Shown here one piece after another: positions 31,861 through 45,523 of a stretch of DNA of 64,000 nt. The notes beneath the pieces were generated by a model. The model ran no database searches, was not told where the DNA came from, and worked only from the letters and a program-made list of their open reading frames with translations. Within the stretch, counting starts at the first letter, position 1; each line of letters starts with the position of its first letter. The position numbers and the translations under genes are program-made. Origin of the DNA: Candidatus Zixiibacteriota bacterium (GTDB lineage Bacteria; RBG-13-66-14; B26-G2; WVWN01); NCBI GenBank assembly GCA_050117845.1, contig JASFLY010000013.1, forward strand, positions 6,829 through 70,828, in the 5' to 3' direction.

Positions 31861-31951
31861 CCCATATGATTTAGGAAAATAATCCGGCGGGGTCGCCGGA
31901 AAAACCCATATGATTTCGGAAAAAAACCGCCCGAACGGGCGGCTTTTTTGG
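31861..31951. repeat. Two tandem ~45-bp imperfect direct repeats (CCCATATGATTT[A/C]GGAAAA... + GC hairpin)
   Basis: Direct comparison of 31861-31905 with 31906-31951. Each unit carries a CATATG palindrome and a GC hairpin. Confidence 0.6.
31921..31949. terminator. Bidirectional rho-independent terminator (A7, CCGCCC-GAAC-GGGCGG, T6) shared by convergent fhs and the radical SAM gene
   Basis: GC stem with flanking A- and T-tracts. Additional GC hairpins lie at 31757-31781 and 31790-31808. Confidence 0.7.
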
Positions 31952-32036: not shown

Positions 32037-33530
32037 TCAATCGCTGGGGTTCGCCCGGGTCGCCAACTCCTGCGGGGCGACGCGGGGGGAGTGGGCGCCG
32101 CAGCTCTCGGCGTCCGGTTCCTCCTGGCCCTCGGGCGTGGGGTAGAAGCCGAACTGCCGCATGGCCGCGAGTTTGGGCAGGACGTTATTTTCGAGGTCAA
32201 TGTGGAAGAAGCCGGGGAAGACGTCGGCGTTGTCGACGATGAGGTCGAAGTAGCTGTTGTACTTGTCGGGCAGCGAGACCTCGCCGCCCACGCAGACCTC
32301 GTGGCCGGTGAAGACGAACTCCGGAAAGAGGTAGGGGCAGAACTCGAGCGTCGTCTTGGCGGCCCATTCCTCGTAGATGGGCGTCTGCGGCAGCAGCGAC
32401 AGCAGGCTCGGGAGGATGCGCGCCCCCATCATTCGGAACGAGACCATCTGGAAGAGCGACTGGTGGAAGTCCTCCATCGTCTCGAACGGGAATCCCCACA
32501 CGTAGAAGGCGTCGACGCGGGGGAAGATTTCTATCGCCTGCGGGATGAGGTCCAGCGTCTCCTGGGCCGTGAATCCTTTCTTGATGAGCCCTAGGATGCG
32601 GTCGGAGCCGGACTCGATGCCGAAGCGCAACTCCAGGCAGCCGCTGTCGGCCATCGCCTTCATCATCTCCACGTCGCAGAGGTTGACGCGGCCGAAGGCC
32701 TTCCAGTTGACGTCGAGGCCGGACCCCTCGAGTTCCCGGCAGAACTCCATGACCTGCTTCTTGCCCGAGACGAAGAACTCGTCCTGGAATAAAAAGAGGT
32801 CTACGCCCGCCTCCTCGTGCAGGACGCGCATCTCGTCCACGATGCTCTTCGCGCTGCGGGAGTAGCTCTCGTAGTTCCAGACGGGCGCCACCGAGCAAAA
32901 GGTGCAAGGGTAGGGGCAACCGCGGCTCGTCATCATGCCGTAGCCGGCGTACTCGCCGAGCTCTATCTTGTGGAAGGCGGGCAGGGGAATGCCGTCGAGG
33001 TCGGCCATGCGTTCCCGGTTCGGGTTGTGGACGACGCGGCCTTCGTCGCGGTAGGAGATGCCCGCCACGGCCGAGAGGTCTCCCCCGCGCGAGAGGGTCC
33101 CGACGAGCTCGGGGCCCGTGAGTTCCGCCTCGCCCCGGCAGACGACGTCCACCCACGGGAAGCGCGTCAATACCTTGTCCTCCACCGACTTCGACCCCAC
33201 GCCCCCCAGGACGAGCTTCCGGTCCGGGTAGCGCTCCCGCAGGGCCCGGAGGGCCATGAGGGAGAAGGGCAGGAGGTTGGCCATGCACGACAGGCCGATG
33301 ACGGGCGCCGGGTCGTCCAGGTAGTCGAGGAAGACGTCCATGTCGAACGGGTCGTCCGACGGGCAGCGCTGGTAGTCGCGGAAGTCGACGTCGAAGCCGG
33401 CGTCCTCCAGCGCCGTGGTCAGGTAGAGCGGCCCGAGGGGGACGTGCAGTTCGCGCTCGACCTCCTCGCCGTAGCGGATAAAAAGCATGTTTAGATTTAC
33501 GAGCGTGATGTCGCCGGGCATATCATTCAC
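32037..33530 (-). CDS. B12-binding (class B) radical SAM enzyme
   Basis: N-terminal cobalamin-binding-like Rossmann region (LGPLYLTTALEDAGFDVDFRD...VIGLSCM), then the radical SAM CxxxCxxC motif (SRGCPYPCTFCS) and a glycine-rich SAM-binding region. Its start overlaps the upstream paralog by 8 nt, suggesting co-transcription. Confidence 0.8.
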   Translation of the reverse strand: MNDMPGDITLVNLNMLFIRYGEEVERELHVPLGPLYLTTALEDAGFDVDFRDYQRCPSDDPFDMDVFLDYLDDPAPVIGLSCMANLLPFSLMALRALRERYPDRKLVLGGVGSKSVEDKVLTRFPWVDVVCRGEAELTGPELVGTLSRGGDLSAVAGISYRDEGRVVHNPNRERMADLDGIPLPAFHKIELGEYAGYGMMTSRGCPYPCTFCSVAPVWNYESYSRSAKSIVDEMRVLHEEAGVDLFLFQDEFFVSGKKQVMEFCRELEGSGLDVNWKAFGRVNLCDVEMMKAMADSGCLELRFGIESGSDRILGLIKKGFTAQETLDLIPQAIEIFPRVDAFYVWGFPFETMEDFHQSLFQMVSFRMMGARILPSLLSLLPQTPIYEEWAAKTTLEFCPYLFPEFVFTGHEVCVGGEVSLPDKYNSYFDLIVDNADVFPGFFHIDLENNVLPKLAAMRQFGFYPTPEGQEEPDAESCGAHSPRVAPQELATRANPSD

Positions 33531-34242
33531 CGGTTCCTTCGCTTGGTTTGTCGGGTTGTATCCCCACGCTGAGCGGTATTATCGGTTTGGGGTGGGGGTT
33601 GGACGCTTCTACTTCTATCGTGACGGCCGTCCGTTCTCCCGCTCGGACTTGTACGCCCGGCAAGGTTGCGAGGGCAAAATCGTCGCTGGGGCGGAACGCG
33701 TATAACTCGTAAGTTCCGGGGCGCAGGTTTCTAAAGCGGAAGCCGCCGTCTTTTCCGGGCCGGGCGTAAAAATCGGTCCCCGCGATATTGACCCATACGT
33801 CGCTTCCGGGGCCGCCGGACGCGCCGACAACGACGCCGGTTATTACGCCGGTGTCATCGGCGATTTCCCCCGCAGGTATTTCCTCCGGGTTCGCGGGCTC
33901 CGGCGCCTCGCGGGAGATTTCCGGCGTTCCCGTTTCGGCCGCGCGTTCGTTTCCTTCTCCCTTGCACCCGGAGGCCGCCGTCCCCATCGCCGCGAGCATT
34001 GCCGTAGCGGTCGCGCCGAGTAGTACGGGCCGCAGGCTCGGCCTCACCTTCGTACGAGCTATTATTGCTTTAAGCTGTTCCTCGGGCACGGCGCCCAGCA
34101 ACGCCGCCTCGGCCGGCGTCAACGCGAGCGCGACGTCGTCGGCCGCGCCGGCACGTTTCGCCAGTAACGCTTTCCTGAAGGCCGGGTCCACCGCGGCCTT
34201 CTTGATTAATACCTCTATATTTCGGGACAACGGCGCCGCCAT
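33523..34242 (-). CDS. Paralog P1: conserved N-domain, hydrophobic helix ending ...ASGC, Pro/acidic spacer, CarboxypepD_reg-like domain, GIQPDKP tail
   Basis: N-domain NIEVLIKKAAVDPAFRKALLAKRAGAADDVALALTPAEAALLGAVPEEQLKAIIARTKV. C-domain GVITGVVVGASGGPGSDVWVNIAGTDFYARPGKDGGFRFRNLRPGTYELYAF. Confidence 0.7.
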   Translation of the reverse strand: MAAPLSRNIEVLIKKAAVDPAFRKALLAKRAGAADDVALALTPAEAALLGAVPEEQLKAIIARTKVRPSLRPVLLGATATAMLAAMGTAASGCKGEGNERAAETGTPEISREAPEPANPEEIPAGEIADDTGVITGVVVGASGGPGSDVWVNIAGTDFYARPGKDGGFRFRNLRPGTYELYAFRPSDDFALATLPGVQVRAGERTAVTIEVEASNPHPKPIIPLSVGIQPDKPSEGTGE

Positions 34243-34243
34243 G

Positions 34244-34951
34244 TCATTCGCCTCTCTCGTCGGGCCAGTCCGGCAGGATACCTGCCGGTACTGGTCTGAG
34301 GCGGATTTCGTCTTTTGTATTTAGCTCCAACGAAACTTCCGTTTTTACCCCAACTTCCGCTTCGATCCGGGAACGGTTTAAAGGCGCATAACCGTCCACG
34401 TCGAAAATGAGAGTGTAGGTGCCGGGGAGAACGGGGGAGAGGACGTAGAAGCCGCGGCTATTCGTAACCGTTTCCTGGCCGGTCTCGTCAATTATGACCT
34501 CGGCGTTAACGAACGGCTTGCCGAACTCGTTGATGACGCGGCCGTAGATGACGCCGGCGTCCTCGGGTGTGTCGATATCGTCGGCGTTGTCGATATCGTT
34601 ATCTAAGGGCGCGTCCGGGATATCGGGCCCGGGGTCAATGCCGGTGACGATTAGCTCCCATTTATTCTCATCCTCGCCGTACGCCCCGGCGGTCAATGCC
34701 GCGAGCATCGCCGTAGCGGTCGCGCCGAGCAGTACGGGCCTCAGGCTCGGCCTTACCTTCGTACGAGCTATAATTGCTTTAAGATGTTCCTCTGGCACGA
34801 CGCCCAGCAACGCCGCCTCGGCGGCCGTTAGCGTAAGCGCGACTTCCTCGGCCGCGCCGGCACGTTTCGCCAGCAACGTCTTCCTGAAGGCCGGGTCCAC
34901 CGCGGCTTTCTTGATCAATACCTCGATATTTCGGGACAGCGGGGCCGCCAT
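34244..34951 (-). CDS. Paralog P2: same N-domain, CarboxypepD_reg-like C-domain
   Basis: N-domain nearly identical to P1. C-domain GVIYGRVINEFGKPFVNAEVIIDETGQETVTNSRGFYVLSPVLPGTYTL. Ends GILPDWPDERGE. Confidence 0.7.
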   Translation of the reverse strand: MAAPLSRNIEVLIKKAAVDPAFRKTLLAKRAGAAEEVALTLTAAEAALLGVVPEEHLKAIIARTKVRPSLRPVLLGATATAMLAALTAGAYGEDENKWELIVTGIDPGPDIPDAPLDNDIDNADDIDTPEDAGVIYGRVINEFGKPFVNAEVIIDETGQETVTNSRGFYVLSPVLPGTYTLIFDVDGYAPLNRSRIEAEVGVKTEVSLELNTKDEIRLRPVPAGILPDWPDERGE

Positions 34952-34952
34952 G

Positions 34953-35660
34953 TCATTCGCCCTCTCCGTCGGGCCGGTCGGGCCGGATGCCGGTTCCCAT
35001 GCCGCTACCGTAAAGCTCTATGCCGGGTTGAATGTATACCTGCAACGAAACGTCGGTTTTCATCCCTTCCCGGACTTCGACGTCTTTTTGTTTTTCCCTT
35101 TCCGCGCCCGGTACGTAGACGACGACGGTATATTTCCCCGGCGGAACGGGGGACACGACGTAATAGCCGTGGCGGTTCGTGATGGTGTCGATTTCCAACT
35201 CTTCGATTTGTACGGTTATAAATGGTACGGGCTCGCCGTCCTGGTCGCGGATGCAGCCGTAGATGAGGCCAGCCCCCTCCGGGACCTCGAGACCCTCCGG
35301 GCTGTCCATCGTATAGCTGTACGTTTCCGGCGGAACGCCGGGTTGGGCGCCGTAGCTTTTGACCGGTGCGTCGTCGACTTCGGCGGGAGTCGCCCGGGTC
35401 GCGAGGGCCGCGAGCATCGCCGCCGCCGCGTAACCGAGGAACACGGGACGGAGACCCGGGCTCACCCTGGTCCGGCCCACGATCGCTTTGAGCTGGTCCT
35501 CGGGCACGGCTTCGAGTATCGCCGCCTCGGCGGCCGTCAGCGTAAGCGCGATGTCGTCGGCCGCGCCGGCGCGCTTCTCGAGTAGCTTCTTCTTGAAGGC
35601 CGGGTCGACCGCGGCCTTGTGGATTAATACTTCGACGTTCCGGGGGGCCTCTCCGGGCAT
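34953..35660 (-). CDS. Paralog P3: same N-domain, CarboxypepD_reg-like C-domain
   Basis: MPGEAPRNVEVLIHKAAVDPAFKKKLL.... C-domain GLIYGCIRDQDGEPVPFITVQIEE...NRHGYYVVSPVPPGKYTV. Ends GIRPDRPDGEGE. Confidence 0.7.
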   Translation of the reverse strand: MPGEAPRNVEVLIHKAAVDPAFKKKLLEKRAGAADDIALTLTAAEAAILEAVPEDQLKAIVGRTRVSPGLRPVFLGYAAAAMLAALATRATPAEVDDAPVKSYGAQPGVPPETYSYTMDSPEGLEVPEGAGLIYGCIRDQDGEPVPFITVQIEELEIDTITNRHGYYVVSPVPPGKYTVVVYVPGAEREKQKDVEVREGMKTDVSLQVYIQPGIELYGSGMGTGIRPDRPDGEGE

Positions 35661-35661
35661 A

Positions 35662-36357
35662 TTATTCGCCTTTCTCTTCGGGGAGGTCGGGGCGGATTCC
35701 CGTTACGGGGTGTTCTCCGGGGCCGAGGATCAGTTTTACCGATACTTCGGTTTTCATCCCTTCCCGCACTTCGACGTGGGAGCGGGGCTCTTTCCCGTAT
35801 CCGGACATCGCGAAGCTGAGGTCGTGGAAACCCGGGGGGACCGGCGTCAGGACATAGAAACCGTAGCGATTCGTTGCCGTCTCCATCCCCAGATCGACGA
35901 TCGTTACGACTACGTTCGAAGCCGGGTCGCCGAACTCGTCGACGACGCGGCCGAAGATAACGCCGGCGTCGTCGGGTACGTCGATATCCGCGGGGTCGTT
36001 TATAGTACTGTCGTAAATCCGGGGAGGGATAATCGGGTCGGCGCCGAAATTAATAACGGTCTCCCGCTGACTCGCTTCCTCGCCGTACGCCGCGGCGGCC
36101 AGCGCCGCCAGCATCGCCCCGGCGGTCGCGCCGAGTAGTACGGGCCGCAGGTTCGGGCTCACCTTCGTCCGGCCTATGATGGTTTTTAGCTGTTCGTCGG
36201 ACACGGCCTCGAGCATCGCGGCTTCCGCCGGCTCGAGCGCGAGCGCGATGTCGTCCGCGGCCCGGGCCCGTTTCGACAGGAGCGTTTCCTTGAACGCCGG
36301 ATCCACGGCGGCCTTTTTGATCAGCACTTCGACGTTCCGGGGGATTTCGCGCCGCAT
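35662..36357 (-). CDS. Paralog P4: same N-domain, CarboxypepD_reg-like C-domain
   Basis: MRREIPRNVEVLIKKAAVDPAFKETLL.... C-domain GVIFGRVVDEFGDPASNVVVTIVD...NRYGFYVLTPVPPGFHDL. Ends GIRPDLPEEKGE. Confidence 0.7.
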   Translation of the reverse strand: MRREIPRNVEVLIKKAAVDPAFKETLLSKRARAADDIALALEPAEAAMLEAVSDEQLKTIIGRTKVSPNLRPVLLGATAGAMLAALAAAAYGEEASQRETVINFGADPIIPPRIYDSTINDPADIDVPDDAGVIFGRVVDEFGDPASNVVVTIVDLGMETATNRYGFYVLTPVPPGFHDLSFAMSGYGKEPRSHVEVREGMKTEVSVKLILGPGEHPVTGIRPDLPEEKGE

Positions 36358-36358
36358 A

Positions 36359-36907
36359 TTATTTACCTTTCTCTTCCGGCACGTCGGGCCGAATGCCGGT
36401 TTCTATGTCCATGGTCGATGGGTAGGGTTCGACCGTCGCGGCCGTTTCGGCCGAGGCCTCTTCTGAATACGGGTCGTCGGGATAATCGGGGTCGATTCCC
36501 CGGTCTATCGGGTCCTCCTCGGGCCGCGGGGGCTTGCACCCGGAAGCGGCCAGAGCCGCCAGCATAGCGGCCGCCACGGCTCCCAGGAACGCTGGCCGCA
36601 GGCTCGGGCTCACCTTCGTCCGGCCTATGATGGCCCGGAGCTGGTCCTCGGGGACGGCGCCCAGCATCGCGGCCTCGGCCGGCTCGAGCGATAGGCCGAT
36701 GTCTTCGGCCGCCCGGGCCCGTTTGGATAATAATACCTTTTTGAACGCCGGGTCCACCGCCGCCTTCTTCACCAGGACCTCGACGCCGCGCGGGACTTCG
36801 CCCATGCTGCGGCCCGAGCGCGGCGGTTGGCCGCCGACTATCGTCGTCTTCACGACCTCCGGCTCTCCGGGTCGGGCCATCTTCACTCTATCGGTGTGTT
36901 CGCTCAT
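36359..36907 (-). CDS. Paralog P5: TTIVGGQPP N-extension, N-domain, helix ending ...ASGC, acidic/Pro tail only (no globular C-domain)
   Basis: MSEHTDRVKMARPGEPEVVKTTIVGGQPPRSGRSMGEVPRGVEVLVKKAAVDPAFKKVLL.... Tail carries GIDPDYPDDP and GIRPDVPEEKGK. Confidence 0.65.
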   Translation of the reverse strand: MSEHTDRVKMARPGEPEVVKTTIVGGQPPRSGRSMGEVPRGVEVLVKKAAVDPAFKKVLLSKRARAAEDIGLSLEPAEAAMLGAVPEDQLRAIIGRTKVSPSLRPAFLGAVAAAMLAALAASGCKPPRPEEDPIDRGIDPDYPDDPYSEEASAETAATVEPYPSTMDIETGIRPDVPEEKGK

Positions 36908-36917
36908 GCTTCCTCCG

Positions 36918-37649
36918 TTAAGGCCTGTCGGGTCGGATGCCGTCGATGGCCGGGCTGCGGTTCGGCGACCCGGCGCCGTCTTCCTTTTTCACCAGTACAA
37001 AGGTAACGCTGGTTTTGTAGTCTTTCAAGATATATATGTTCTCCTGGATGTCGGCTTCGTACCCCGGTTTCGACGCTTTAACCGACCAACACCCGAGCCG
37101 TACGTTTTCTATTTCGTATTCTCCGGCGGCGTTGGTGGTGGTAGATTTATCGCCTTCCATCGTGCTGACCGTAATTTTTACGTTACTAATAGGCCGGTTT
37201 TCGGAGTTCAGGACGCGGCCGAATAATACGCTATATTCCGCTTCCAGGTCCATATCTTCCGGTGCGACGTTAGGATCTCGACTGGGCGGAGCGCCAGGGG
37301 GACGGATGGCGTCCGGCGGGATGCTGCCTGGCGAAATGCCGTAAGTCTTCTCACCGGCCCGCCCGGAGGCCGGCGTTATAACTGTAGTCCCTATCGCCGC
37401 CAACATCGCCGTCGCCGCGGACCCCAGGAAAGCGGGCCGCAGGCCCGGCTTGACCTTAGTCCGGTTTATTATAGCGCGGAGTTGGTCCTCGGGGACGGCA
37501 TTTATCACCGCGGCCTCGGCCGGCTCGAGCGCAAGGCCGATGTCTTCGGCCGCCCGGGCCCGCTTGGATAATAATACCTTTTTGAAGGCCGGGTCAACCG
37601 CGGCTTTTTTTATCAGGACCTCAACGTTACGGGGAATCTCCCTCGACAT
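36918..37649 (-). CDS. Paralog P6: same N-domain, divergent CarboxypepD_reg-like C-domain
   Basis: MSREIPRNVEVLIKKAAVDPAFKKVLL.... C-domain VLFGRVLNSENRPISNVKITVSTMEGDKSTTTNAAGEYEIENVRLGCWSV. Ends GIRPDRP. Confidence 0.7.
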   Translation of the reverse strand: MSREIPRNVEVLIKKAAVDPAFKKVLLSKRARAAEDIGLALEPAEAAVINAVPEDQLRAIINRTKVKPGLRPAFLGSAATAMLAAIGTTVITPASGRAGEKTYGISPGSIPPDAIRPPGAPPSRDPNVAPEDMDLEAEYSVLFGRVLNSENRPISNVKITVSTMEGDKSTTTNAAGEYEIENVRLGCWSVKASKPGYEADIQENIYILKDYKTSVTFVLVKKEDGAGSPNRSPAIDGIRPDRP

Positions 37650-38463
37650 ATAACTTGCCTTTCTTCGGCGGTAAATCGGGCCGGATGCCTAATCCGCCGG
37701 CACACGGGTCAGGCGACCGGCTGCCATCCTCTATCTGCACCCAGACGGGCGTACGTTCGCCGGCAATTACTTCTATGCCCTCGTAAAAGGCGATTTCCTC
37801 GTTCGTGTAAGGGTCGGCGACGATTAGATTATACTCGCCGGGCGCGACTTGGTTGAATACGAAGTCACCTTTTTCGCCGGGGATGGCGTACGCGTCGCTC
37901 CCCTCGAGGGTGACGACGACGTCTGTAACCGGGAAATCCTCCGGGACGTACACGACGCCCGTAATGACGCCCCTATCGGCCGGGATTTCGCCGGTCGGTA
38001 TCTCTTCCGGGTCCGCCCGATGTCGCTCTTCTATGACGGCGACCGTATGTCCCTTGACTAAATCTATGTCGCGACGTTCGGCCGCCTTTTTCGAACAGGA
38101 CGTACCGATTCCCAGCGCCGCCAGCATCGCCGTCGCGGCGTAACCGAGGAATGCGGGCCTAAGCTTCGGGCTTACGCGCGTGTGGGCGATTATCCCCTCG
38201 AGTTGGGCGAGAGGGACGGCCGCCAGCATCGCGGCTTCTTCGGGGGTAAGCTTGAGGCCGATTGACTGCGCGGCCTCGGCACGTTTTTCGAGTAGCATAT
38301 CCCTGAAGGCCGGGTCCACCGCGGCCTTCTTGACCAGGACCTCGATGCCCCGCGGAATGGCCCGGGGTATCGCCGCCGCTTCGGGCGGCCGGCCGCCCAC
38401 AATCGTCGTCCGGGCGGCATCGGGGCCGGCCTTGTCGCGGCGCCGGGGACCGTCGTCTCCCAT
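37627..38463 (-). CDS. Paralog P7 (first gene of operon 2): TTIVGGRPP N-extension, N-domain, CarboxypepD_reg-like C-domain. Its stop codon has mutated to TTA, so the frame reads 8 codons into P6.
   Basis: MGDDGPRRRDKAGPDAARTTIVGGRPPEAAAIPRAIPRGIEVLVKKAAVDPAFRDMLL.... C-domain GVITGVVYVPEDFPVTDVVVTLEGSDAYAIPGEKGDFVFNQVAPGEYNL. The junction reads GGC AAG TTA T ATG, versus GGC GAA TAA T ATG elsewhere. Confidence 0.7.
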   Translation of the reverse strand: MGDDGPRRRDKAGPDAARTTIVGGRPPEAAAIPRAIPRGIEVLVKKAAVDPAFRDMLLEKRAEAAQSIGLKLTPEEAAMLAAVPLAQLEGIIAHTRVSPKLRPAFLGYAATAMLAALGIGTSCSKKAAERRDIDLVKGHTVAVIEERHRADPEEIPTGEIPADRGVITGVVYVPEDFPVTDVVVTLEGSDAYAIPGEKGDFVFNQVAPGEYNLIVADPYTNEEIAFYEGIEVIAGERTPVWVQIEDGSRSPDPCAGGLGIRPDLPPKKGKLYVEGDSP

Positions 38464-38517
38464 TACAATCTCCCTTACGCTATTCCCTCAAATGAACAAA
38501 TATCGTTTAACGTAAAT

Positions 38518-38546
38518 ATTATATACGTATTTTGGACACGGTGCAA
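38518..38546 (-). promoter_or_regulatory. Sigma70 consensus promoter on the minus strand (TTGCAC-17-TATAAT) driving operon P7..P1 and the radical SAM gene
   Basis: The reverse complement of the AT-rich 38464-38690 gap contains TTGCACcgtgtccaaaatacgtaTATAAT. An AAGGGAG RBS lies before the P7 ATG. Confidence 0.5.
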
Positions 38547-38690
38547 AGCCGGCGGTTTTAATCCTAATATCCGATGCACGATTTAAAGCCGGCCGCGCTC
38601 ATGTTCGGCTATATGGGGCCGCGGCGCATCCAGCGGTATCTCAATGTGATATGCGGCCATATTAAAGTATATTATTAACTACGTCGGGCG

Positions 38691-39656
38691 CTATTCCCGG
38701 CCTTTCCCGGAATCCGCGAGGGACGTTAAATCCTCCGGGTAGGGCGAGAAAAAGGTCTGGTTCTCCAAATACCCTTCGCCGAAGCGGACGACGTATCCCC
38801 GCAGGACATTCAGCGGTACGCTGAGGGGGACCCGTTTCGCCCGGAATCGCTCGAGCGCGTCCAGGAAGAACGCCTTTTCCTCGCGGCCGAGTTTATCCTT
38901 GAAGTAACCCAGGCCGTGCGTGAGGACGTTGACGTTCGATTGATAACGGGGCGGCCGGGCCAAAGCCGCCGTAAAGCCGTCCTCGTACGCCGCGAGCGTT
39001 TCCGATAAGGGCCCTCGGCCCGCCGCCGCAACGACGCGGCCTAGTTCGCGCATCCGCGTTTGGTTGTATGCCATCAGAAGGAACTTGTTGGCGGCGTGGA
39101 ACGCGACGACGTCTTTCGCCTTTCCTTTTTCTCTCAGTTCGCGGAAGGACGCCAACGCGAATAACTTCGTAAGGAAGTGTTCCCGCAGCCGCGCGTTCTT
39201 GAGGCGGCCTTCGTCCTCGAACGCCAGCCGGCCGAAGCGCTCCAGGGCCGCCCCGCCGAAGAAACCCGCCCCCTTGCCGGAGGGCGCGGCTCCCTCGGCG
39301 GCCGGATATATCTTGACGTCCTTGATGCCGGAGCTGGGGGAGCGGCTCTTGAGGATGAAGCCGTCGACGGGGCCAAGGACGTCCAGAAACGACGCCGCGA
39401 AGGTCTCCATCTTCGCTGTGAGGTCGGCTCCCGTCGCCGGTTGCACCAGCCGCCGCTTGCCGCCGGCCTCGACGACGCGGACCGTTTCCCGGGGGACCCC
39501 CAGGCCAATCTCGACCTCGGGGCAAACGGGTATGAATTTAACGTGGGGTTTGAGCGCGGCGACGAATTCGTCGTTGACGATCGACCCGTCGTAGCGGACG
39601 GCGTCGAAGCCGAGGCAACGGCTGACGACTACCGTGGGTTTGGCGAATTCCCTCAT
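38691..39656 (-). CDS. DUF523/DUF1722 (YbbK/YbgA-family) fusion protein, last gene of operon P12..P8
   Basis: MREFAKPTVVVSRCLGFDAVRYDGS... (DUF523-like, with conserved Cys and the VRYDG motif), and a C-terminal half resembling DUF1722. Start set at the internal ATG 39656; the upstream track extension is Arg/Gly-rich GC noise. Confidence 0.6.
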   Translation of the reverse strand: MREFAKPTVVVSRCLGFDAVRYDGSIVNDEFVAALKPHVKFIPVCPEVEIGLGVPRETVRVVEAGGKRRLVQPATGADLTAKMETFAASFLDVLGPVDGFILKSRSPSSGIKDVKIYPAAEGAAPSGKGAGFFGGAALERFGRLAFEDEGRLKNARLREHFLTKLFALASFRELREKGKAKDVVAFHAANKFLLMAYNQTRMRELGRVVAAAGRGPLSETLAAYEDGFTAALARPPRYQSNVNVLTHGLGYFKDKLGREEKAFFLDALERFRAKRVPLSVPLNVLRGYVVRFGEGYLENQTFFSPYPEDLTSLADSGKGRE

Positions 39657-39709
39657 GCGGAGCCGGGTCCCCCCGGCGACGGCGCTATCCCGCGGCCCGG
39701 GCACTGCCC

Positions 39710-40621
39710 CTAGTCCCCGGGGGCGACGAATACGAACGGATAAGTTATCGTGACGCCCTCGTCCGGCGCGGCCGCGAAGCGCCACGTTCTAATCCTGGCG
39801 ATTATCGCGTCGCGCAGATACGTATCGCCGAGGGTGTCTTCGACTATGACGACGTAGGTGACGGTCCCCTCCGGCGACACGCCGAAGCGCGTTACCACCT
39901 TGCCCCCGGCGAGGGACGGATTCCTGGACACCGCCTCGTCGTACGCGCCCTGTATACTCGAGAAATTCTTGCGGACGGTAGCGATTACGCCGGCTCTCGT
40001 TCGGTCCGCCGGCTTCCGGTGCGGTCCCCGCTTAGTTGGCTCGTCGGTAGTTATCGTCTCGGGTCGGATCCCCAGGGAACCGGGTCGAACAACCACGCTG
40101 CTACGTTTTAACGTCGGTAGTCCGGAAGCGGTGACCGATCCCGAGCGAGGCCGGTCGCTACGCATACCGCCGCTTCCCCCGGATACGGCGTAACCGTGTC
40201 GTTCCGCCACGCCGGTTTTTATCGGGGCGATCTTGGGCGAAGATTCCGCCGTATTTTCCGTTTCGCCGCCGGGCGACGTAGCGTTGAAATCATTGCCCTG
40301 GCACAACACCAACGTACCGCCGAGGGCCGCGAGCATCAGGCGGCCTACGTTAGACAGGAAGGCCGGCCGCGCTTCGGGGTCGACGTACGTACTGCTAACT
40401 ATTTGTTCGAGTTGGGGGAGGGGAGCGGCCGCGAGGATTGCGGCCTCTTCGGGGGTGAGTTCCAGGCCGATGGCCCGGGCGGCCTCGGCCCTTTTTTCGA
40501 ACAACAAACGCTTGAACGCCGGGTCCACCGCGGCTTTTTTTATAAGGACTTCCACGCCGCGAGGCACTTCCCGCGCGGCCGGTACGCCGGCCGTATCGTT
40601 ACTGTCCGTAACCATGCCCAC
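39710..40621 (-). CDS. Paralog P8: same N-domain, hydrophobic helix, Ser/Pro spacer, TonB_C-like C-domain
   Basis: ...EVPRGVEVLIKKAAVDPAFKRLLFEKRAEAARAIGLELTPEEAAILAAAPLPQLEQIV.... C-domain GVIATVRKNFSSIQGAYDEAVSRNPSLAGGKVVTRFGVSPEGTVTYVVIVEDTLGDTYLRDAIIARIRTWRFAAAPDEGVTITYPFVF. Confidence 0.7.
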   Translation of the reverse strand: MGMVTDSNDTAGVPAAREVPRGVEVLIKKAAVDPAFKRLLFEKRAEAARAIGLELTPEEAAILAAAPLPQLEQIVSSTYVDPEARPAFLSNVGRLMLAALGGTLVLCQGNDFNATSPGGETENTAESSPKIAPIKTGVAERHGYAVSGGSGGMRSDRPRSGSVTASGLPTLKRSSVVVRPGSLGIRPETITTDEPTKRGPHRKPADRTRAGVIATVRKNFSSIQGAYDEAVSRNPSLAGGKVVTRFGVSPEGTVTYVVIVEDTLGDTYLRDAIIARIRTWRFAAAPDEGVTITYPFVFVAPGD

Positions 40622-40640
40622 GCCCTCTCTTCGGTAGTAC

Positions 40641-41522
40641 TTAATTGCTTTCGGCGGAAAATATTATCGTAGCCGCGGCGCTAACGTTCCCTTCGTCGAT
40701 ACCCCGGAAGTGCCACGATCCGACTTCCCGGACGACGGCATCGGAAAACGTCGACGAACTGACGTTACTACCGATTACGGCCACGTCGTAAACGCTCCCG
40801 ACCGCTTTAATGTTAAAGCCGATCACCATTTTACCGTGTTTGGGGGCGTCGCCGTTATTCGACATAACGGCGTAAAGCATTCGCATGTCCGGAATAAAGG
40901 TATTGACCTCTTCCCGGACGTCCGCGGTATCCCGGAAGGGGGCCCCCACGGCCGGCGGAACGACCACGACGTCGACGATGTTGACGTTGAACCCCTTGGG
41001 CCGGTTTTTTAAATCACTATCGGGCCGAATTCCGCCCAGGCCGCCGCCGGCGCCGCCGCCGGTTACCGTTCCGTTCCCGCCCGAATATAAGCCCGTACCC
41101 ACGTCGGGGGCCAGGGTTCCGCTCCCACCGGTGTCCGCCGTCTCGGCCGTCTCGGCGGTTTCCGGTTGCGGCGGGTAGTCGGGGCGGATCCCTTTCGACT
41201 TTACGTCGACCGTCCCGTACTCGGCCGCCGGGTCCTTACACCCGGCCGCGGCGAGCGCCGCCAGCATGGTCGCGGCCGCCGCTCCCAGGAACGCGGGACG
41301 GAGGTTCGGACTCACCCTGGTCCGGCCCACGATGGCCCGAAGCTGGCTCTCGGGCACGGCTTTCAGCATCGCGGCCTCGGCGGGCGTTATATCGAGCGCG
41401 ATGTAGGCCGCGGCGCCGGCGCGTTCGGCGAATAAAGCCTTCTTGAACGCCGTGTCCACCGCGGCCTTTTTTATTAGAACCTCTATATTCCTCGGTATCT
41501 CTATAGCCATTTCACTCATCAA
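40641..41522 (-). CDS. Paralog P9: same N-domain, helix ending ...AAGC, two GIRPD motifs in a Gly/Thr-rich spacer, TonB_C-like C-domain
   Basis: MMSEMAIEIPRNIEVLIKKAAVDTAFKKALF.... C-domain FIPDMRMLYAVMSNNGDAPKHGKMVIGFNIKAVGSVYDVAVIGSNVSSSTFSDAVVREVGSWHF. Confidence 0.7.
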   Translation of the reverse strand: MMSEMAIEIPRNIEVLIKKAAVDTAFKKALFAERAGAAAYIALDITPAEAAMLKAVPESQLRAIVGRTRVSPNLRPAFLGAAAATMLAALAAAGCKDPAAEYGTVDVKSKGIRPDYPPQPETAETAETADTGGSGTLAPDVGTGLYSGGNGTVTGGGAGGGLGGIRPDSDLKNRPKGFNVNIVDVVVVPPAVGAPFRDTADVREEVNTFIPDMRMLYAVMSNNGDAPKHGKMVIGFNIKAVGSVYDVAVIGSNVSSSTFSDAVVREVGSWHFRGIDEGNVSAAATIIFSAESN

Positions 41523-42348
41523 CCGGTTCGAAAATGAAAGGATACGTGACCGTAACGTCGCCCTCCTCGATGGGGGGAAAACGCCAGGTACGGACGCGCG
41601 TGAGTATAGTGCTGTTCAAGAACTCGTCGCCTATGCCGTCTGACGTGATATTGCCGGCGGTTACCAATCCGTCGGAATCGATAGTTATTTCTAATTCGAC
41701 CGTTCCGTGTTTAATAGACGGGTTCTTTCTATACACGTTCTCAATACCTGGTAAATGCCTCTCAAACACGGTCCCAATAACTTTAGCCGACCTTTTCGGG
41801 TCGCCCGCTCCGGGTCCTATTATCAAGGTGGGCAAGGATTCGACGATAATCGGCTTCCTAGGTTCTGATTGAATACCGGGCGGAAAATCTCCTCTAATGC
41901 CGAAGCACAACCCCCCTATCGACTCCCTCCCGGCGTCGTTGCTATCGGTTAACGGAGGTTTTTCTTTTACGCTATCGACCGGGCCCATAATGCTTTCCTC
42001 CGCCGTCCCGGGTTGGTTCTCGGGAGGAGGGTCGGGGCGCAAGCCGAAAGTTTCATCCGTCGGGTTGTCGCAGGCCAGGAACGCCGGCCCCAGCGCCGCC
42101 AGCATCGCGCCGGCGGCGTAGCCCAGGAATGCCGGCCTGACGCCGGGGCTTACGCACGTGCGCGTCACTATGGCTTCGAGTTGGGGGAGGGGGGCGGCCG
42201 CGAGGAGCGCGGCCTCTTCGGGGGTGAGTTCCAGGCCGATGGCCCGGGCGGCCTCGGCCCTTTTTTCGAACAACAAACGCTTGAACGCCGGGTCCACCGC
42301 GGCTTTTTTAATAAGCACTTCGACGCCGCGGCGTATGCCATGTTCCAT
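41512..42348 (-). CDS. Paralog P10: same N-domain, TonB_C-like C-domain. Start set at the internal MEHGIRRG.
   Basis: MEHGIRRGVEVLIKKAAVDPAFKRLLFEKRAEAARAIGLELTPEEAALLAAAPLPQLEAIV.... C-domain KVIGTVFERHLPGIENVYRKNPSIKHGTVELEITIDSDGLVTAGNITSDGIGDEFLNSTILTRVRTWRFPPIEEGDVTVTYPFIF. The track start at 42465 would overlap P11 by 115 nt. Confidence 0.65.
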   Translation of the reverse strand: MEHGIRRGVEVLIKKAAVDPAFKRLLFEKRAEAARAIGLELTPEEAALLAAAPLPQLEAIVTRTCVSPGVRPAFLGYAAGAMLAALGPAFLACDNPTDETFGLRPDPPPENQPGTAEESIMGPVDSVKEKPPLTDSNDAGRESIGGLCFGIRGDFPPGIQSEPRKPIIVESLPTLIIGPGAGDPKRSAKVIGTVFERHLPGIENVYRKNPSIKHGTVELEITIDSDGLVTAGNITSDGIGDEFLNSTILTRVRTWRFPPIEEGDVTVTYPFIFEPVDE

Positions 42349-42349
42349 A

Positions 42350-42847
42350 TTACCCTCCGTCTTCGCCAGGGTAATCCGGCCGCATTCCGCCTTTCCCCTC
42401 CGTCCCGGACCCGGATTCCCCGACGGGTTCCTCCGCCGTTCCCTCCACGTCGGCGCTGCGTTCATCCCCGGCGGCGGTCTCCGCCGTTTCCGGCGTGGGT
42501 GGGTAGTCCGGGTTGATACCGGTGGGGGGCGCCGGGTACGGCGTATCGTTGGGCGCGGGGTTCTTGCACCCCGCCGCGGCCAGCGCCGCCAGCATCGTCG
42601 CGGCCGCCGCCCCCAGGAACGCGGGGCGGAGTTTCGGGCTCACCTGCGTCCTGTTAATAATGGCCCGCAGTTGGTCCTCGGCGGCGTTGTCGATCAGCGC
42701 CCGTTCGGAAGGCGTAAGGTCGAGGGCGATAATCGCGGCCGCCCCGGAACGTGCCTCGATTAACTTCCTTTTGAAGGCCGGGTCTATCGAGGCTTTTTTT
42801 ATTAACACCTCGACGCCGCGGGGGATTTCGAAGGTGGCCTCGCTCAT
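42350..42847 (-). CDS. Paralog P11: N-domain, helix ending ...AAGC, acidic/Pro tail only. Start set at MSEATFEIPRG.
   Basis: ...EIPRGVEVLIKKASIDPAFKRKLIEARSGAAAIIALDLTPSERALIDNAAEDQLRAIINRTQV.... Tail carries GINPDYPPTPETAETAA and GMRPDYPGEDGG. Confidence 0.6.
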   Translation of the reverse strand: MSEATFEIPRGVEVLIKKASIDPAFKRKLIEARSGAAAIIALDLTPSERALIDNAAEDQLRAIINRTQVSPKLRPAFLGAAAATMLAALAAAGCKNPAPNDTPYPAPPTGINPDYPPTPETAETAAGDERSADVEGTAEEPVGESGSGTEGKGGMRPDYPGEDGG

Positions 42848-42857
42848 ATAGCCTCCA

Positions 42858-43430
42858 TCACGGCCTATCGGGACGGACACCGCGGGTCACGAGGTCGTCC
42901 CTGCCGTCGTCGGCCGTGGCCTGTTCGTCCTTGGCCAGCTCCTCGCCTTCGTCTTCGGCGGGGGGAGCGCCGGTTTCGGGTTCGCTCTCGGCGGTCGTCG
43001 GCCCCTCGACGTCGGGGACGTCGGGCCGGGCGCCGCCGGCGACCGGGGGAAAACATCCCGCCACCGCTATTCCCAGCGCCGCGACGATGACGGCCGCGGA
43101 CCAGCTCAACAGGGCCTTGCGGTGGCCGGGTTCCACCTTGGTATGGTCGACGATGGCCTCGATTTGCGCCGCCGGGGCCGCGCGCAGCATGGCCTCCTCG
43201 GCGGCCTCGAGTTTTAGGCCGATCTCGGCGGCGGCCGCCTCGCGCCGGTCGAGGAGTAGGGCCCGGAACTCCTCGTCGACCGCGGCTTTTTTCATAAGAA
43301 CCTCTACGCCGCCGGGGATCTCGCCCACGGCCTTGCCGCAGCCGGGCGGCCGGCCGCCCACGATTGTGGTCCGTACGGCCGGTTTTTCGACGGGGGAGTC
43401 GCCTTCGTCGCGCGAGGGGATATTCGCCAT
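42858..43430 (-). CDS. Paralog P12 (first gene of operon 1): TTIVGGRPP N-extension, divergent N-domain, acidic/Pro tail ending GVRPDRP
   Basis: MANIPSRDEGDSPVEKPAVRTTIVGGRPPGCGKAVGEIPGGVEVLMKKAAVDEEFRALLL.... Start at ATG 43430 with an AAGGAAGGA RBS; the longer track start is a spurious extension. Confidence 0.65.
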   Translation of the reverse strand: MANIPSRDEGDSPVEKPAVRTTIVGGRPPGCGKAVGEIPGGVEVLMKKAAVDEEFRALLLDRREAAAAEIGLKLEAAEEAMLRAAPAAQIEAIVDHTKVEPGHRKALLSWSAAVIVAALGIAVAGCFPPVAGGARPDVPDVEGPTTAESEPETGAPPAEDEGEELAKDEQATADDGRDDLVTRGVRPDRP

Positions 43431-43484
43431 AACGGTCCTTCCTTGAATCGGTGGATAGGGTCGCCGCCGGGTATAATCATTTAA

Positions 43485-43513
43485 AGTATATACCATCCGG
43501 GGGAATTTGTAAA
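43485..43513 (-). promoter_or_regulatory. Sigma70-like promoter on the minus strand (TTACAA-16-TATACT) for operon P12..P8 and DUF523/1722
   Basis: The reverse complement of the 43431-43600 intergenic region contains ttacaaattcccccggatggtatatact. Confidence 0.45.
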
Positions 43514-43615: not shown

Positions 43616-43644
43616 TTGACATAGCGTTAATATTGGGGCATAAT
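43616..43644 (+). promoter_or_regulatory. Sigma70-like promoter TTGACA-17-CATAAT (divergent from the P12 promoter)
   Basis: Consensus -35 hexamer, 17-nt spacer, and an AAGGAGG RBS before ATG 43666. Confidence 0.5.
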
Positions 43645-43665
43645 TTTAATAAGGAGGTTAGGAAA

Positions 43666-44427
43666 ATGCGAAAATATATCTCCGCAATCGCGTTTCTAAT
43701 TATCGCGTTCACGGCGGGCGCGCTGGCGTGGGGGACTTTGGTTGCGTCTTACCCCTGTCCCGAGGGCTCCCGTTTTCCGAACGGCCTGGCCTTTCGCAAT
43801 AGTCGCCTGTATATCGCGACCAACGACGTTAATTATACGGTATGGCAGGTGCGGCCGAATACGGGCAGCGTCCTCTTGTCCCACCAGGCGCCGTCGCGGC
43901 CTATTATGGGCCTGGCCGCGGGCCTCGCCGGCGAAACCGTTTCGTACTGGATATCTTCGACGAACGGGGCCGGCAGGATATACCAGGTGGGTTATCTCAG
44001 CGGCTCGGTCGTCAATTCTTTCCCGCCGTACGGCTCCCATCCGATGGGCCTCGCTTTCCGGAGCGCGACGCGGATGTACCATACCGACTATAACGCCCGC
44101 AGGCTATTCGTAATACACCCGGTGACCGGGTCCGTTTACGATTCGTACCCCCTCGATTTCGGGCCTTGCGACTGCGCCTACGGCGGCGGGTACCTGTGGA
44201 TAGCCGACGGGTACGGCGAACTGATTCATCAGTGCGATTTGACCGGCTCGACGCTGGCGTCGTTCTCGACGGCGGAGTACGGCTTCTGTTCCGGTTTGGC
44301 CTATTACAATCAATTCGTTTGGGTCGGGATCAACGAACCCATGCATTCGATATTGAAATTCGAGGTCGACCCGTTTCACGCCGTCGAACCGGCGTCGGTG
44401 GGCCGGGTAAAAGCGCTGTTCCGCTGA
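43666..44427 (+). CDS. Hypothetical secreted repeat protein (family with the 1..596 and 45524..46318 genes)
   Basis: Signal peptide MRKYISAIAFLIIAFTAGALA followed by WGTLVASYPCPEG. Recurrent ...TGSV..S(Y/H)... repeats suggest a beta-propeller or beta-rich fold. C-terminus ends ...SVGRVKALFR. Confidence 0.55.
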   Translation: MRKYISAIAFLIIAFTAGALAWGTLVASYPCPEGSRFPNGLAFRNSRLYIATNDVNYTVWQVRPNTGSVLLSHQAPSRPIMGLAAGLAGETVSYWISSTNGAGRIYQVGYLSGSVVNSFPPYGSHPMGLAFRSATRMYHTDYNARRLFVIHPVTGSVYDSYPLDFGPCDCAYGGGYLWIADGYGELIHQCDLTGSTLASFSTAEYGFCSGLAYYNQFVWVGINEPMHSILKFEVDPFHAVEPASVGRVKALFR

Positions 44428-44510: not shown

Positions 44511-44951
44511 CTACTTCTTCTCGAGCCGTTCCGTGCCTGTTTTCGTGCTTCCCTCGTAGGCCGTTATTCCCTCGAGCGAATTGTCCGGGTTGACCGTGTA
44601 CGCGACTACGCCGAGTACGCCGGCCTCGTCCCGATATCCCACGACGAATAAATCTCCCCGCCACAAAGCCACGCCGGGGTAGGCGATCCTGTCGCCCACG
44701 CGGTAGGTAACCCAATATACGTGGCGCCCCGGTTCGACGTCGACTTCGCAGTCGTAGGCGTCGCCGTCCGGGTCGACGCCGCTGCCGGCGTACGTTCCGA
44801 CTATGTCTATTTCGGTTTCGGTGGCCGTTTCGGCGGCCGTCGGGGGAGTCGCGGTCTCGGGTTCGGCCGTGCCCTCGGCCGCCTTGCGGCAAGACGCGGG
44901 GATGACGGCTACCAACGCGACGGCGACGATTATACCGTAAACTTTGTTCAT
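44511..44951 (-). CDS. Hypothetical secreted protein / possible lipoprotein
   Basis: Signal peptide MNKVYGIIVAVALVAVIPASC. Paralog of the 44948..45340 gene, with shared ...GY...G.....Y.V.PD.SL.G.....G....GTE.LEK. Confidence 0.5.
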   Translation of the reverse strand: MNKVYGIIVAVALVAVIPASCRKAAEGTAEPETATPPTAAETATETEIDIVGTYAGSGVDPDGDAYDCEVDVEPGRHVYWVTYRVGDRIAYPGVALWRGDLFVVGYRDEAGVLGVVAYTVNPDNSLEGITAYEGSTKTGTERLEKK

Positions 44952-45340
44952 TGATTATTCCCCCCTGTCCCGTCGGTTTCATCCCTGTATAACTTCTCGG
45001 TACCGATTTCCTTGAAACCCGGCAGGCCGAGAGCTCCGTCCAGCGTGCCGTCCGGCAATATCTTGTAGAGCGCTACGCCGTAACCGATGTGGGCCGCGTA
45101 CCCGACGCATAGGTAACCGTCTTTTATGATGCCGATGCCTTCGTACCCGAATTCATCCTCGAATTCCCAAACTACCCGATAAACCTCCTCGGTTTTATTT
45201 ATATCTACTTTGCAGCCGTACGTGCCCGGTTCGTAGGGACGTTGGCCGAAGCCGGTATACTCGCCCGTGACGTCGTCGGGGGCGGTCGCCGCGAGCGCCA
45301 GCGCCGCCGCGGTTAGAGAGTATAAGATCACTCTTTTCAT
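44948..45340 (-). CDS. Hypothetical secreted protein (paralog of the 44511..44951 gene)
   Basis: Start set at MKRVILYSLTAAALALAATA (ATG 45340). C-terminal ...ILPDGTLDGALGLPGFKEIGTEKLYR aligns with its neighbour. Confidence 0.5.
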   Translation of the reverse strand: MKRVILYSLTAAALALAATAPDDVTGEYTGFGQRPYEPGTYGCKVDINKTEEVYRVVWEFEDEFGYEGIGIIKDGYLCVGYAAHIGYGVALYKILPDGTLDGALGLPGFKEIGTEKLYRDETDGTGGNNQ

Positions 45341-45523
45341 CGGGTGCCTCCTCGCGTTAATAAAGCCAGGGTGAATAATACTAAAATTACGCCCGCGGCG
45401 CAACCCACGCTCGTTCGGTTATAATTTGGGGCGGGATTCATCGCCGCTAAAACCCGGTATCCGGACCTCGTAAAAAAAGAAGCCGCCCCGAGGGACGGCT
45501 TCTCTTTTAGGTCGGGTAATTCT

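Follow-up and report, generated by a model that had tools for sequence, protein, structure and literature searches.

The window analysed here, a 64,000-nt stretch of contig JASFLY010000013.1 from a Candidatus Zixiibacteriota bacterium, carries on its minus strand a tandem array of twelve paralogous genes (P1-P12, spanning 33523-43430), which is directly followed by the gene of a class B, i.e. B12-binding, radical SAM (rSAM) enzyme. All twelve paralogs share an N-terminal domain (N-domain), behind which lie a hydrophobic segment resembling an export signal and a tail with short motifs of the type GIRPDxP. The pairing of such genes with the enzyme recurs across phyla, and we conclude with high confidence that the paralogs are substrates of the rSAM enzyme. 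The genes and features of the locus are as follows (positions in the window).

32037-33521, minus strand: class B (B12-binding) rSAM enzyme, 494 aa; Pfam B12-binding and Radical_SAM domains above cutoffs; conserved partner of the array
33523-34242, minus strand: P1; N-domain, putative signal peptide with lipobox, CarboxypepD_reg, C-terminal GIQPDKP
34244-34951, minus strand: P2; N-domain, signal-peptide-like segment (AYG/E), CarboxypepD_reg, GILPDWP close to the C-terminus
34953-35660, minus strand: P3; N-domain, hydrophobic segment, CarboxypepD_reg, C-terminal GIRPDRP
35662-36357, minus strand: P4; N-domain, hydrophobic segment, CarboxypepD_reg, C-terminal GIRPDLP
36359-36907, minus strand: P5, long form; TIVGGQP (36824-36844), N-domain, lipobox, short disordered tail with GIDPDYP and GIRPDVP
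36918-37649, minus strand: P6; N-domain, hydrophobic segment, CarboxypepD_reg, final GIRPDRP-stop
37627-38463, minus strand: P7, long form; TIVGGRP (38386-38406), N-domain, lipobox, CarboxypepD_reg, GIRPDLP, stop lost
39710-40621, minus strand: P8; N-domain, hydrophobic segment with Cys, degenerate motifs (GIRPE), AgmX/PglI-TonB_C module
40641-41510, minus strand: P9; N-domain, lipobox, two GIRPD motifs, TonB_C-like module
41512-42348, minus strand: P10; N-domain, lipobox, GLRPDPP, AgmX/PglI-TonB_C module
42350-42847, minus strand: P11, short member; N-domain, lipobox, tail with GINPDYP and GMRPDYP
42858-43430, minus strand: P12, long form; TIVGGRP (43347-43367), N-domain, lipobox, tail GARPDVP, final GVRPDRP-stop
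38691-39656, minus strand: DUF523 (2-thiouracil desulfurase-like)/DUF1722 gene between the sub-arrays; Pfam matches; outside the conserved cassette
43485-43513, minus strand: promoter-like site 5' of P12 (TTTACA-17-TATACT); consensus match only
38518-38547, minus strand: promoter-like site 5' of P7 (TTTGCA-18-TATAAT); consensus match only
31883-31900, minus strand: terminator-like hairpin 3' of the rSAM gene; consensus match only

An earlier note on this DNA had described twelve tandem minus-strand paralogs with a common N-terminal region, and this description holds: a six-frame scan of the whole window with the N-domain core EVL[IVM]xKA[AS][VI]D returns exactly 12 matches, all on the minus strand (34215-43304), and a 67-nt DNA unit recurs 12 times in the array. 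By their DNA identity over 240-300 nt, P1/P2 (87%) and P8/P10 (85%) are the most recent duplicates within the array. The proteins are 165-303 aa long, with P11 (165 aa) and P5 (182 aa) as short members. The conserved junction with a 1-nt gap, which had been ascribed to the array as a whole, is present at seven junctions (P11/P10, P10/P9, P5/P4, P4/P3, P3/P2, P2/P1 and P1/rSAM) in the form (TAA|TGA)-N-ATG. It does not extend to P12/P11 and P6/P5, which are spaced by 10 nt, to P9/P8 with 19 nt, or to P7/P6. Hereby, P7 overlaps P6 because its stop codon is lost (TAA to TTA, 37651-37653, minus strand; AAG TTA T ATG compared to the conserved AAA TAA T ATG), read-through adding 8 codons (LYVEGDSP) and producing a 23-nt overlap. 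For P9, P10, P11 and P12 the listed starts of the open reading frames (ORFs) are upstream artefacts, the true starts being 41510, 42348, 42847 and 43430, respectively; the last of these, an ATG, is implied by the promoter-like site at 43485-43513. The two sigma70-type promoters proposed earlier are recovered as promoter-like sites with 10 of 12 matches each, but they are consensus matches only, and their weight is limited by the 11 such sites found in the region compared to 3.3 expected. The DUF523/DUF1722 gene, previously counted as part of the system, is present in the window but in none of 66 related loci, which were gathered in metagenome-assembled genomes by scanning one genome per species. 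It is thus ruled out as a cassette component and therefore looks like a lineage-specific insertion or passenger, which would have split one array into two transcription units.

Over their 93-residue N-regions the twelve paralogs share 22 invariant columns at a mean column identity of 71%. Searches of Pfam and NCBIfam with the N-domain, which the earlier note had suggested as a check, place it in no well-characterised functional family. The sole significant match is NF038399 ('Os1348 family NHLP clan protein', NCBIfam), which belongs to the leader clan of peptides that are made by the ribosome and modified after translation (RiPPs) and is matched by all twelve N-domains with E values of 1e-4 to 9e-11; a RiPP-like reading is therefore favoured. 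The curated cutoff of this model (40 bits) is passed by P7 only (41.7 bits), the remaining paralogs scoring 22-36 bits. Weak extra matches concern NHLP, NHase-alpha and Frankia_peptide, and at least one relative (P0074) carries the Os1348-family NHLP clan name from NCBI. The TIGR03793 NHLP leader model, with a cutoff of 50.9 bits, is not reached by any N-domain, the best score being 12.4 bits (P6) in the window and 18.9 bits in a relative. Os1348 is an 85-aa dimeric putative RiPP precursor of Pseudomonas sp. Os17 that has been tied to antibiotic activity (PMC7726476), and NHLP leaders are folded, rigid docking domains (PMC12537861).

Profile searches of the PDB with the N-domain yield marginal matches only, namely to nitrile hydratase alpha chains, the NHLP leader 9CJX and Os1348 (6LK7). 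In the AlphaFold2 (AF2) model of P5 the N-domain forms four helices (residues 40-100, pLDDT 94-97) between disordered flanks, and the top three Foldseek matches of this model in the PDB are chains of 6LK7 (53 residues, root-mean-square deviation 2.5 Å, target-normalised TM score 0.50-0.58, E ~2). On this basis we place the N-domain in the NHLP leader clan, as a distant member, and outside the Os1348 system. The family comprises 870 clusters at 50% identity (E <= 1e-10), in which the domain is always N-terminal, starting at residue 1-8 in short forms or at residue ~30-45 in long forms.

The long forms owe their name to an N-terminal extension with a motif of its own. P5, P7 and P12 begin with ...(K/R)TTIVGG(R/Q)PP..., and in six frames of 1.37 Mb of related DNA the pattern T[IL]VGG[RQ]P occurs 124 times, in 124 of 124 cases ahead of an N-domain and at a fixed spacing of 13 residues. 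The consensus of the extension is xE(Q)EAVRTTIVGGRPPGxGxxVGxIPRGIE. By regular expression, 74 of 80 enzyme-bearing loci have a long-form member, to which L020, L044 and L055 are added on inspection; in the remaining three the first detected gene lies at or near a contig end. TIVGGRP and the tail motif have a G-x-(R/Q)-P core in common; in one relative the N-terminal position is occupied by GGRPD. In the single-copy locus L055 an in-frame stop lies between TIVGGRPPG and the N-domain (GKSVG*IPRGIEVL, ~9953-10020), reflecting either a sequencing error or recent pseudogenisation.

The partner enzyme had been described as a B12-binding class B rSAM protein, and Pfam domains, cysteine motif and fold agree on this assignment. 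Both PF02310 (B12-binding, 44.4 bits) and PF04055 (Radical_SAM, 56.9 bits) score above cutoff, the CxxxCxxC motif (C202-x3-C206-x2-C209) is invariant in 23 orthologues, and the AF2 model (pTM 0.79) finds TsrM, CysS, TokK, MgmA and OxsB in Foldseek with E values of 1e-19 to 1e-15, AprD4 being matched as well. The 8-nt overlap with P1, which assumed a GTG start, is not retained: orthologues begin with MP(A/G)DITLVNLN and the 100%-identical P0121 (Ca. Zixiibacteriota) has 494 aa, so that the most likely start is the ATG at 33521, 1 nt past the P1 stop. The best named NCBIfam model is ApyD, with 165 bits. Orthology to BchE, HpnJ, HpnR or ApyD was rejected, as the scores (132, 115, 45 and 165 bits, respectively) stay far below the curated cutoffs (481, 578, 650 and 750 bits), and the enzyme is thus no orthologue of the housekeeping proteins BchE, HpnJ and HpnR. 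A sequence search of the PDB revealed no close relative (best E 1e-14), and the source names of the enzyme are the generic 'radical SAM protein' or mislabels (BchE cyclase, YgiQ). By these scores the enzyme is a class B rSAM protein, but an orthologue of no named family. Its best named relatives methylate carbon atoms in peptides or proteins (ApyD, TIGR03975, TsrM, CysS, TokK, MgmA), and it is probably a C-methyltransferase, too. The C-terminal tail E-S-C-G-A-H-S-P (residues 472-479, 32085-32108) is invariant in 23 orthologues, yet modelled as disordered (pLDDT < 50); with its conserved Cys and His it could enter the active site or contact a partner.

The coupling between paralogs and enzyme does not depend on the window. 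The 66 related loci stem from Planctomycetota, Verrucomicrobiota, Zixibacteria, Coatesbacteria, Chloroflexota, Thermodesulfobacteriota, Lentisphaerae and others, and in 52 of 59 assessable loci, from about eight phyla, an enzyme orthologue with 60-87% identity lies directly downstream on the same strand. A complete Coatesbacteria genome, for example, encodes six paralogs and, past a 1-nt junction, an enzyme that is 79% identical. In the window, the junction between P1 and the rSAM gene is of the same kind as those between the paralogs. A reverse search from the enzyme in metagenomes agrees: orthologues with at least 69% identity and sufficient upstream sequence are preceded by 1-6 N-domain genes, with L087 as sole exception. 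Upstream of a more distant enzyme subfamily (55-62% identity), the encoded proteins are only ~30% identical in their helical domain but still have TIVGG(R/Q)P, lipobox and GxxPD tail motifs, often also RRxFL. In total, 1,520 enzyme matches were obtained at E <= 1e-20, and among the matches listed 120 of 120 clusters (90% identity) are at least 71% identical to the window enzyme. The co-occurrence of N-domain arrays with class B rSAM genes, named beforehand as a decisive comparison, is thereby established.

ORF clustering of 67 loci yields two conserved families only, the substrates and the enzyme. No third conserved gene (protease, transporter, regulator) was found across these loci, and no family for a dedicated protease or a peptidase-containing ABC exporter is conserved among them. 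The next best family, an NtrC-like response regulator (447 aa; e.g. L066, 2024-3364, Planctomycetota), is present in 11 of the 67 loci and absent from the window. As the other loci hold 1-6 copies of the substrate gene, the twelve of the window form the largest array seen. In the literature on Os1348, proteusins, NHLP and RiPP precursors we found no description of this cassette.

Behind the N-domain, all twelve paralogs contain a hydrophobic segment of 16-29 uncharged residues with an N-flank charge of +2 to +4 and an acidic C-flank. In seven of them (P1, P5, P7, P9, P10, P11 and P12) the segment ends in a lipobox according to PROSITE PS51257 ({DERK}(6)-[LIVMFWSTAG](2)-[LIVMFYSTAGCQ]-[AGS]-C), in those without Cys it ends in AYG/E-like sites, and a looser 4-residue lipobox-like pattern matches 77 of 176 relatives. 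The lipobox Cys is found at residue 91-126, as compared to the usual first ~35 residues with Lys/Arg near the N-terminus. Since the N-domain precedes the signal peptide, the Cys is far from the N-terminus and standard predictors would miss these proteins. The segment thus looks like a cleavable signal peptide of lipobox or AxA type, which is unusually distant from the N-terminus. The helix ending in A(A/S)GC that the earlier note described is in this way borne out as a lipobox for seven of the twelve, and a signal peptide fits it better than the permanent TonB-like anchor considered at the time. By inspection, 51 of 180 relatives show a twin-arginine motif RRxF[LM] (e.g. HRRAFLGKAAAAMLAALG) exactly where the window proteins have LRPAFLG. 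An assignment to the twin-arginine translocation (Tat) pathway by curated models gave sub-threshold matches only and was kept as a motif-level observation; TatA was not found in the window by a crude motif scan, which is too crude for a real test.

The tails are modular, as had been claimed. A CarboxypepD_reg module is present in P1-P4, P6 and P7, a TonB_C or AgmX/PglI C-terminal domain in P8-P10, and no C-terminal module in P5, P11 and P12. Hereby, P8 and P10 exceed the cutoffs of both PF03544 (TonB_C; 29.2 and 26.9 bits, cutoff 24.6) and NF033768 (AgmX/PglI; 69.8 and 63.7 bits, cutoff 40), P9 remaining below both. Among 91 long relatives, modules of CarboxypepD_reg (22), acyl carrier protein (ACP)-like PP-binding (16) and TonB_C type (2) were detected, and this variety confirms the modular tails. 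One or two ACP-like modules, flanked by GxRPD, occur in the tails of six Planctomycetota loci (L013, L020, L035, L046, L048 and L066; PP-binding E to 1e-15). The phosphopantetheine Ser is replaced in seven of seven inspected sequences (e.g. DLGATGTK, DLKADAVD), so that these modules look like pseudo-ACPs; the idea that they signal cytoplasmic folding before export was ruled out for the same reason.

The tails carry the motif G-[IVMLA]-[RQ]-P-D-x-P, which is located directly past the lipobox Cys as well as at the C-terminus or close to it. Eleven of the 12 matches in the entire window fall in paralogs, and in 176 tails of complete family members G.[RQ]PD occurs 262 times, compared to 2.0 instances expected from shuffled tails (maximum 7). 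These instances follow the consensus P-x-T-[TRK]-G-I-R-P-D-R-P, in which position +6 is Pro in 90%. Up to 8 copies occur per protein; in 61 of 75 cases the first is no more than 15 residues away from the Cys, and the last often lies 2 or 7 residues before the stop. The strict motif is found in 64 of the 80 enzyme-bearing loci, its loose form in 71. In four loci with the enzyme downstream (L030, L032, L045 and L047; Sedimentisphaerales and other Planctomycetota) a repeat SLGHTLTPEQRERIF... replaces GxRPD in the tails, and the GxRPD motif is therefore not universal. The GIRPDxP repeats and the N-terminal TIVGGRP, both of which the earlier note had overlooked, are the best candidate modification sites.

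From these observations we derive the following model. A substrate consists of an optional invariant linear motif (AVRTTIVGGRPPG), a ~60-aa four-helix domain of the NHLP clan, a putative signal peptide, which ends in a lipobox or AxA site and has a twin-arginine in many relatives, and an exported part, in which disordered linkers with G-I-R-P-D-x-P motifs surround an optional folded module. The N-domain would act as a leader that docks the cytoplasmic rSAM enzyme, which would then act on the G-x-(R/Q)-P motifs of the disordered regions; the most likely reaction is a cobalamin-dependent methylation at an unactivated carbon. The modified protein would be exported, and signal peptidase II or I would cut off leader and signal peptide in place of a dedicated RiPP leader protease. 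If signal peptidase serves as leader protease, this would explain why neither a leader protease nor an exporter is encoded. As Os1348 crystallises as a dimer and a long form occurs in essentially every complete locus, one long-form member per locus may suffice to bring the enzyme to the short-form paralogs via heterodimers; TIVGGRP may be the primary site of enzyme binding or the target itself. The enzyme may act on the tail repeats, the N-terminal motif, or both.

In its general form, leader-guided C-methylation of envelope (lipo)proteins by an rSAM enzyme before export, we give this reading an even chance, and our confidence is lower for the exact site and chemistry. More tentatively, and at a little less than an even chance, we propose an undescribed, widespread pathway in which an NHLP-like leader in front of a Tat-derived or Sec signal peptide recruits the rSAM enzyme, so that G-x-(R/Q)-P motifs of lipoproteins would be modified prior to export, e.g. 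to C-methyl-Arg, -Pro or -Ile. The presence of extracytoplasmic-type modules (TonB_C, CarboxypepD_reg) speaks for export, and the twin-arginine motif of many relatives would fit a sequence of maturation and then export. The broader RiPP-like or protein-maturation interpretation of the earlier note came through the three points on which it had been set up to fail, i.e. the family of the N-domain, its co-occurrence with rSAM genes and housekeeping orthology of the enzyme.

Several points weigh against the model. rSAM enzymes act in the cytoplasm and the tail motifs lie on the exported side, so that modification must precede export. The window paralogs lack the twin-arginine consensus (S/T-R-R-x-F-L-K), having L-R-P-A-F-L-G without the second Arg, and even among ten RR-bearing relatives the TIGR01409 Tat model is not reached (best 10.9 compared to 16.7 bits). 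Eleven of the twelve N-domains fall below the curated NF038399 cutoff, and the fold match to 6LK7 comes with the Foldseek E value of ~2 given above. The tail motif is missing in 9 of the 80 enzyme-bearing loci even in its loose form (16 of 80 for the strict one), and Sedimentisphaerales members have LGHTLTPEQR repeats in its place. In seven loci (L033, L039, L051, L054, L059, L063 and L067) the N-domain genes are followed by 3.5 kb or more of sequence that contains no rSAM gene; these could be secondary arrays supplied with enzyme in trans, comparable to P12-P8, or truly enzyme-less. A B12-binding domain is no proof of methyl transfer, as BchE, HpnJ, OxsB and AprD4 carry out other reactions. 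Finally, the data show architecture, motifs, domain assignments and the coupling of genes across phyla; the leader role, the modification ahead of export, the modified residue and protein segment, and the chemistry are things that we infer.

The strongest alternative, unlikely in our judgement, confines the modification to the N-terminal T-I-V-G-G-R/Q-P of the long forms. Hereby, the NHLP-like domain would serve as a follower, a type of recognition element known from bottromycin, and the tail repeats would have a separate role in the envelope, e.g. in binding or attachment. TIVGG is the most conserved feature of the substrates, being invariant, family-specific and held at its fixed 13-residue spacing. 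It occurs at least once in essentially every complete locus, single-copy loci included, and is kept where the N-domain has diverged to ~30% identity. It also lies on the enzyme's side of the membrane and is disordered in the AF2 model, as a linear substrate motif should be. On the other hand, the motif is missing in 9 of 12 paralogs and in ~40% of the family, in which N-domain and enzyme coupling are nevertheless kept, and a fragment modified at this position would be discarded with the signal peptide, leaving the benefit unclear. Moreover, the common G-x-(R/Q)-P core and the GGRPD of one relative suggest a single recognition logic for both sites.

It is improbable that the proteins are multi-core precursors of small secreted RiPPs, in which each GIRPDxP unit is modified and short bioactive peptides are excised by proteases. 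The repetition of short tail motifs, up to the maximum of eight per protein, the leader-like domain of the NHLP clan, the RiPP-type rSAM proteins among the best named enzyme matches and the link of the founding member Os1348 to antibiotic activity (PMC7726476) would all fit such precursors. However, neither an immunity gene nor a protease nor a peptidase-containing ABC exporter is conserved among the 67 loci; many members have folded modules (CarboxypepD_reg, TonB_C, ACP-like) between the motifs; signal peptide and lipobox indicate envelope proteins; and an enzyme identity of 60-87% across phyla is unlike that of fast-evolving natural-product clusters.

The other interpretation raised in the earlier note has fared worse, and we now regard it as quite improbable. 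According to this idea, the paralogs are TonB-like, permanently anchored, periplasm-spanning proteins with the N-domain as a signalling or interaction module, and the rSAM enzyme is a non-modifying partner which produces, for example, a small molecule or lipid. It draws on the TonB_C or AgmX/PglI domains at the ends of P8-P10, on the Pro-rich linkers and on a charge distribution of N-in/C-out type. TonB_C, however, is found in only 2 of the 91 long relatives, most members are short with disordered tails, and the lipobox or AxA end, along with RRxFL in many relatives, has the geometry of a cleavable signal peptide. Among the 67 loci there is no conserved ExbB/ExbD family, although the scan for them did not cover the remainder of the window, and the match to the NHLP clan is left unexplained. 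An ordinary paralog family lying beside an unrelated rSAM gene by chance, which the window on its own cannot exclude, is effectively refuted and hardly conceivable given the direct downstream position of the enzyme in 52 of 59 assessable loci from ~8 phyla, the 1-nt junction and the same pairing in the reverse search.

Leader-guided modification before export can be compared to several known systems. Proteusin precursors with NHLP leaders, such as those of the polytheonamides, receive C-methyl groups from PoyB and PoyC, two rSAM enzymes of class B (PMC11285071). The cassette shares with them a folded nitrile-hydratase-like N-terminal leader, a cobalamin-type rSAM enzyme encoded alongside, several paralogous substrates per enzyme and an unstructured target region with multiple sites. 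In contrast to proteusins, a signal peptide or lipobox takes the place of the Gly-Gly cleavage site behind the leader, and instead of short peptides the cassette yields entire exported proteins (130-650 aa) that contain folded modules. Epimerase, dehydratase, protease and transporter are absent from the cassette, the N-domain fails TIGR03793 (12 compared to 50.9 bits), and the enzyme is 60-87% conserved across phyla. Thus, the cassette works most like proteusin maturation, yet fails proteusin membership, and the application of a proteusin-like logic to exported proteins would be its new part.

Os1348 of cluster OS3 (NF038399, PDB 6LK7) represents the only significant family match (E to 9e-11) and the best fold match of the N-domain, and is itself presumed to be a modified precursor. 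Unlike the paralogs, it is a free-standing 85-aa protein without signal peptide, TIVGGRP or GIRPD tail, and it is clustered with a GNAT gene, a peptidase-like gene and efflux genes, but with no rSAM gene (PMC7726476). ApyD of the aminopyruvatide pathway is a B12-dependent rSAM enzyme which methylates Tyr at the beta position within a GYLYD motif at the C-terminus (PMC10635010). It is similar in being the best-scoring named model (165 bits) and in acting on a short motif near the precursor C-terminus; it differs in that the score is far under the equivalog cutoff of 750, in the RRE domain of ApyD and its partners, a multinuclear non-heme iron oxidase (MNIO) and a P450, and in motif and substrate type. 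MgmA, the glutamine C-methylase of methyl-coenzyme M reductase (PDB 9CCB; TIGR04014), is likewise of class B (Foldseek E 4e-17, target-normalised TM score 0.66) and methylates an unactivated carbon in a protein rather than a peptide, but it is only 19% identical and has a single dedicated cytoplasmic substrate with neither leader domain nor export signal.

In the Tat pathway, cofactor-containing precursors are subject to proofreading, with maturation first and export second. The proposed order follows the same logic of mature-then-export, and many relatives have RRxFL directly before the hydrophobic segment. Here, however, a possible hold or dock element would be fused upstream of the signal peptide instead of being provided by a separate chaperone, and the window proteins, with RPAFLG, do not reach curated Tat models.

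Further observations concern the surroundings of the array. Long plus-strand ORFs run antisense to the paralogs and the rSAM gene (34548-35585, 36534-37226, 42158-42763 and others) and recur in all related loci; these are shadow ORFs of GC-rich coding sequence and not genes. Upstream of the array lie genes of two paralogous secreted proteins (43633-44427, plus strand; 45524-46480, minus strand) that end in ...VKALFR and ...IKALYH, respectively, and have no Pfam or NCBIfam match; a homologue adjoins an orphan array in L019 (11500-12300). Between them, two adjacent small proteins are encoded on the minus strand (44511-44951 and 44948-45403), which show sub-threshold matches to LIC10280 (NCBIfam; E 1e-7 and 5e-3).

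Known targets of rSAM modification include short RiPP peptides and a few enzymes of the cytoplasm, e.g. methyl-coenzyme M reductase; we know of no case in which a whole family of exported lipoproteins is modified by way of a leader ahead of the signal peptide. The cassette is abundant, and the phyla it spans are mostly uncultivated. With the short members P11 and P5 and a single enzyme it offers a simple two-gene system. The enzyme identity of 60-87% points to a core function in the envelope rather than to an accessory antibiotic. If the proposed pathway is true, proteins of the periplasm or outer membrane in Planctomycetota, Verrucomicrobiota, Zixibacteria and other phyla would bear a previously unknown modification made by an rSAM enzyme.

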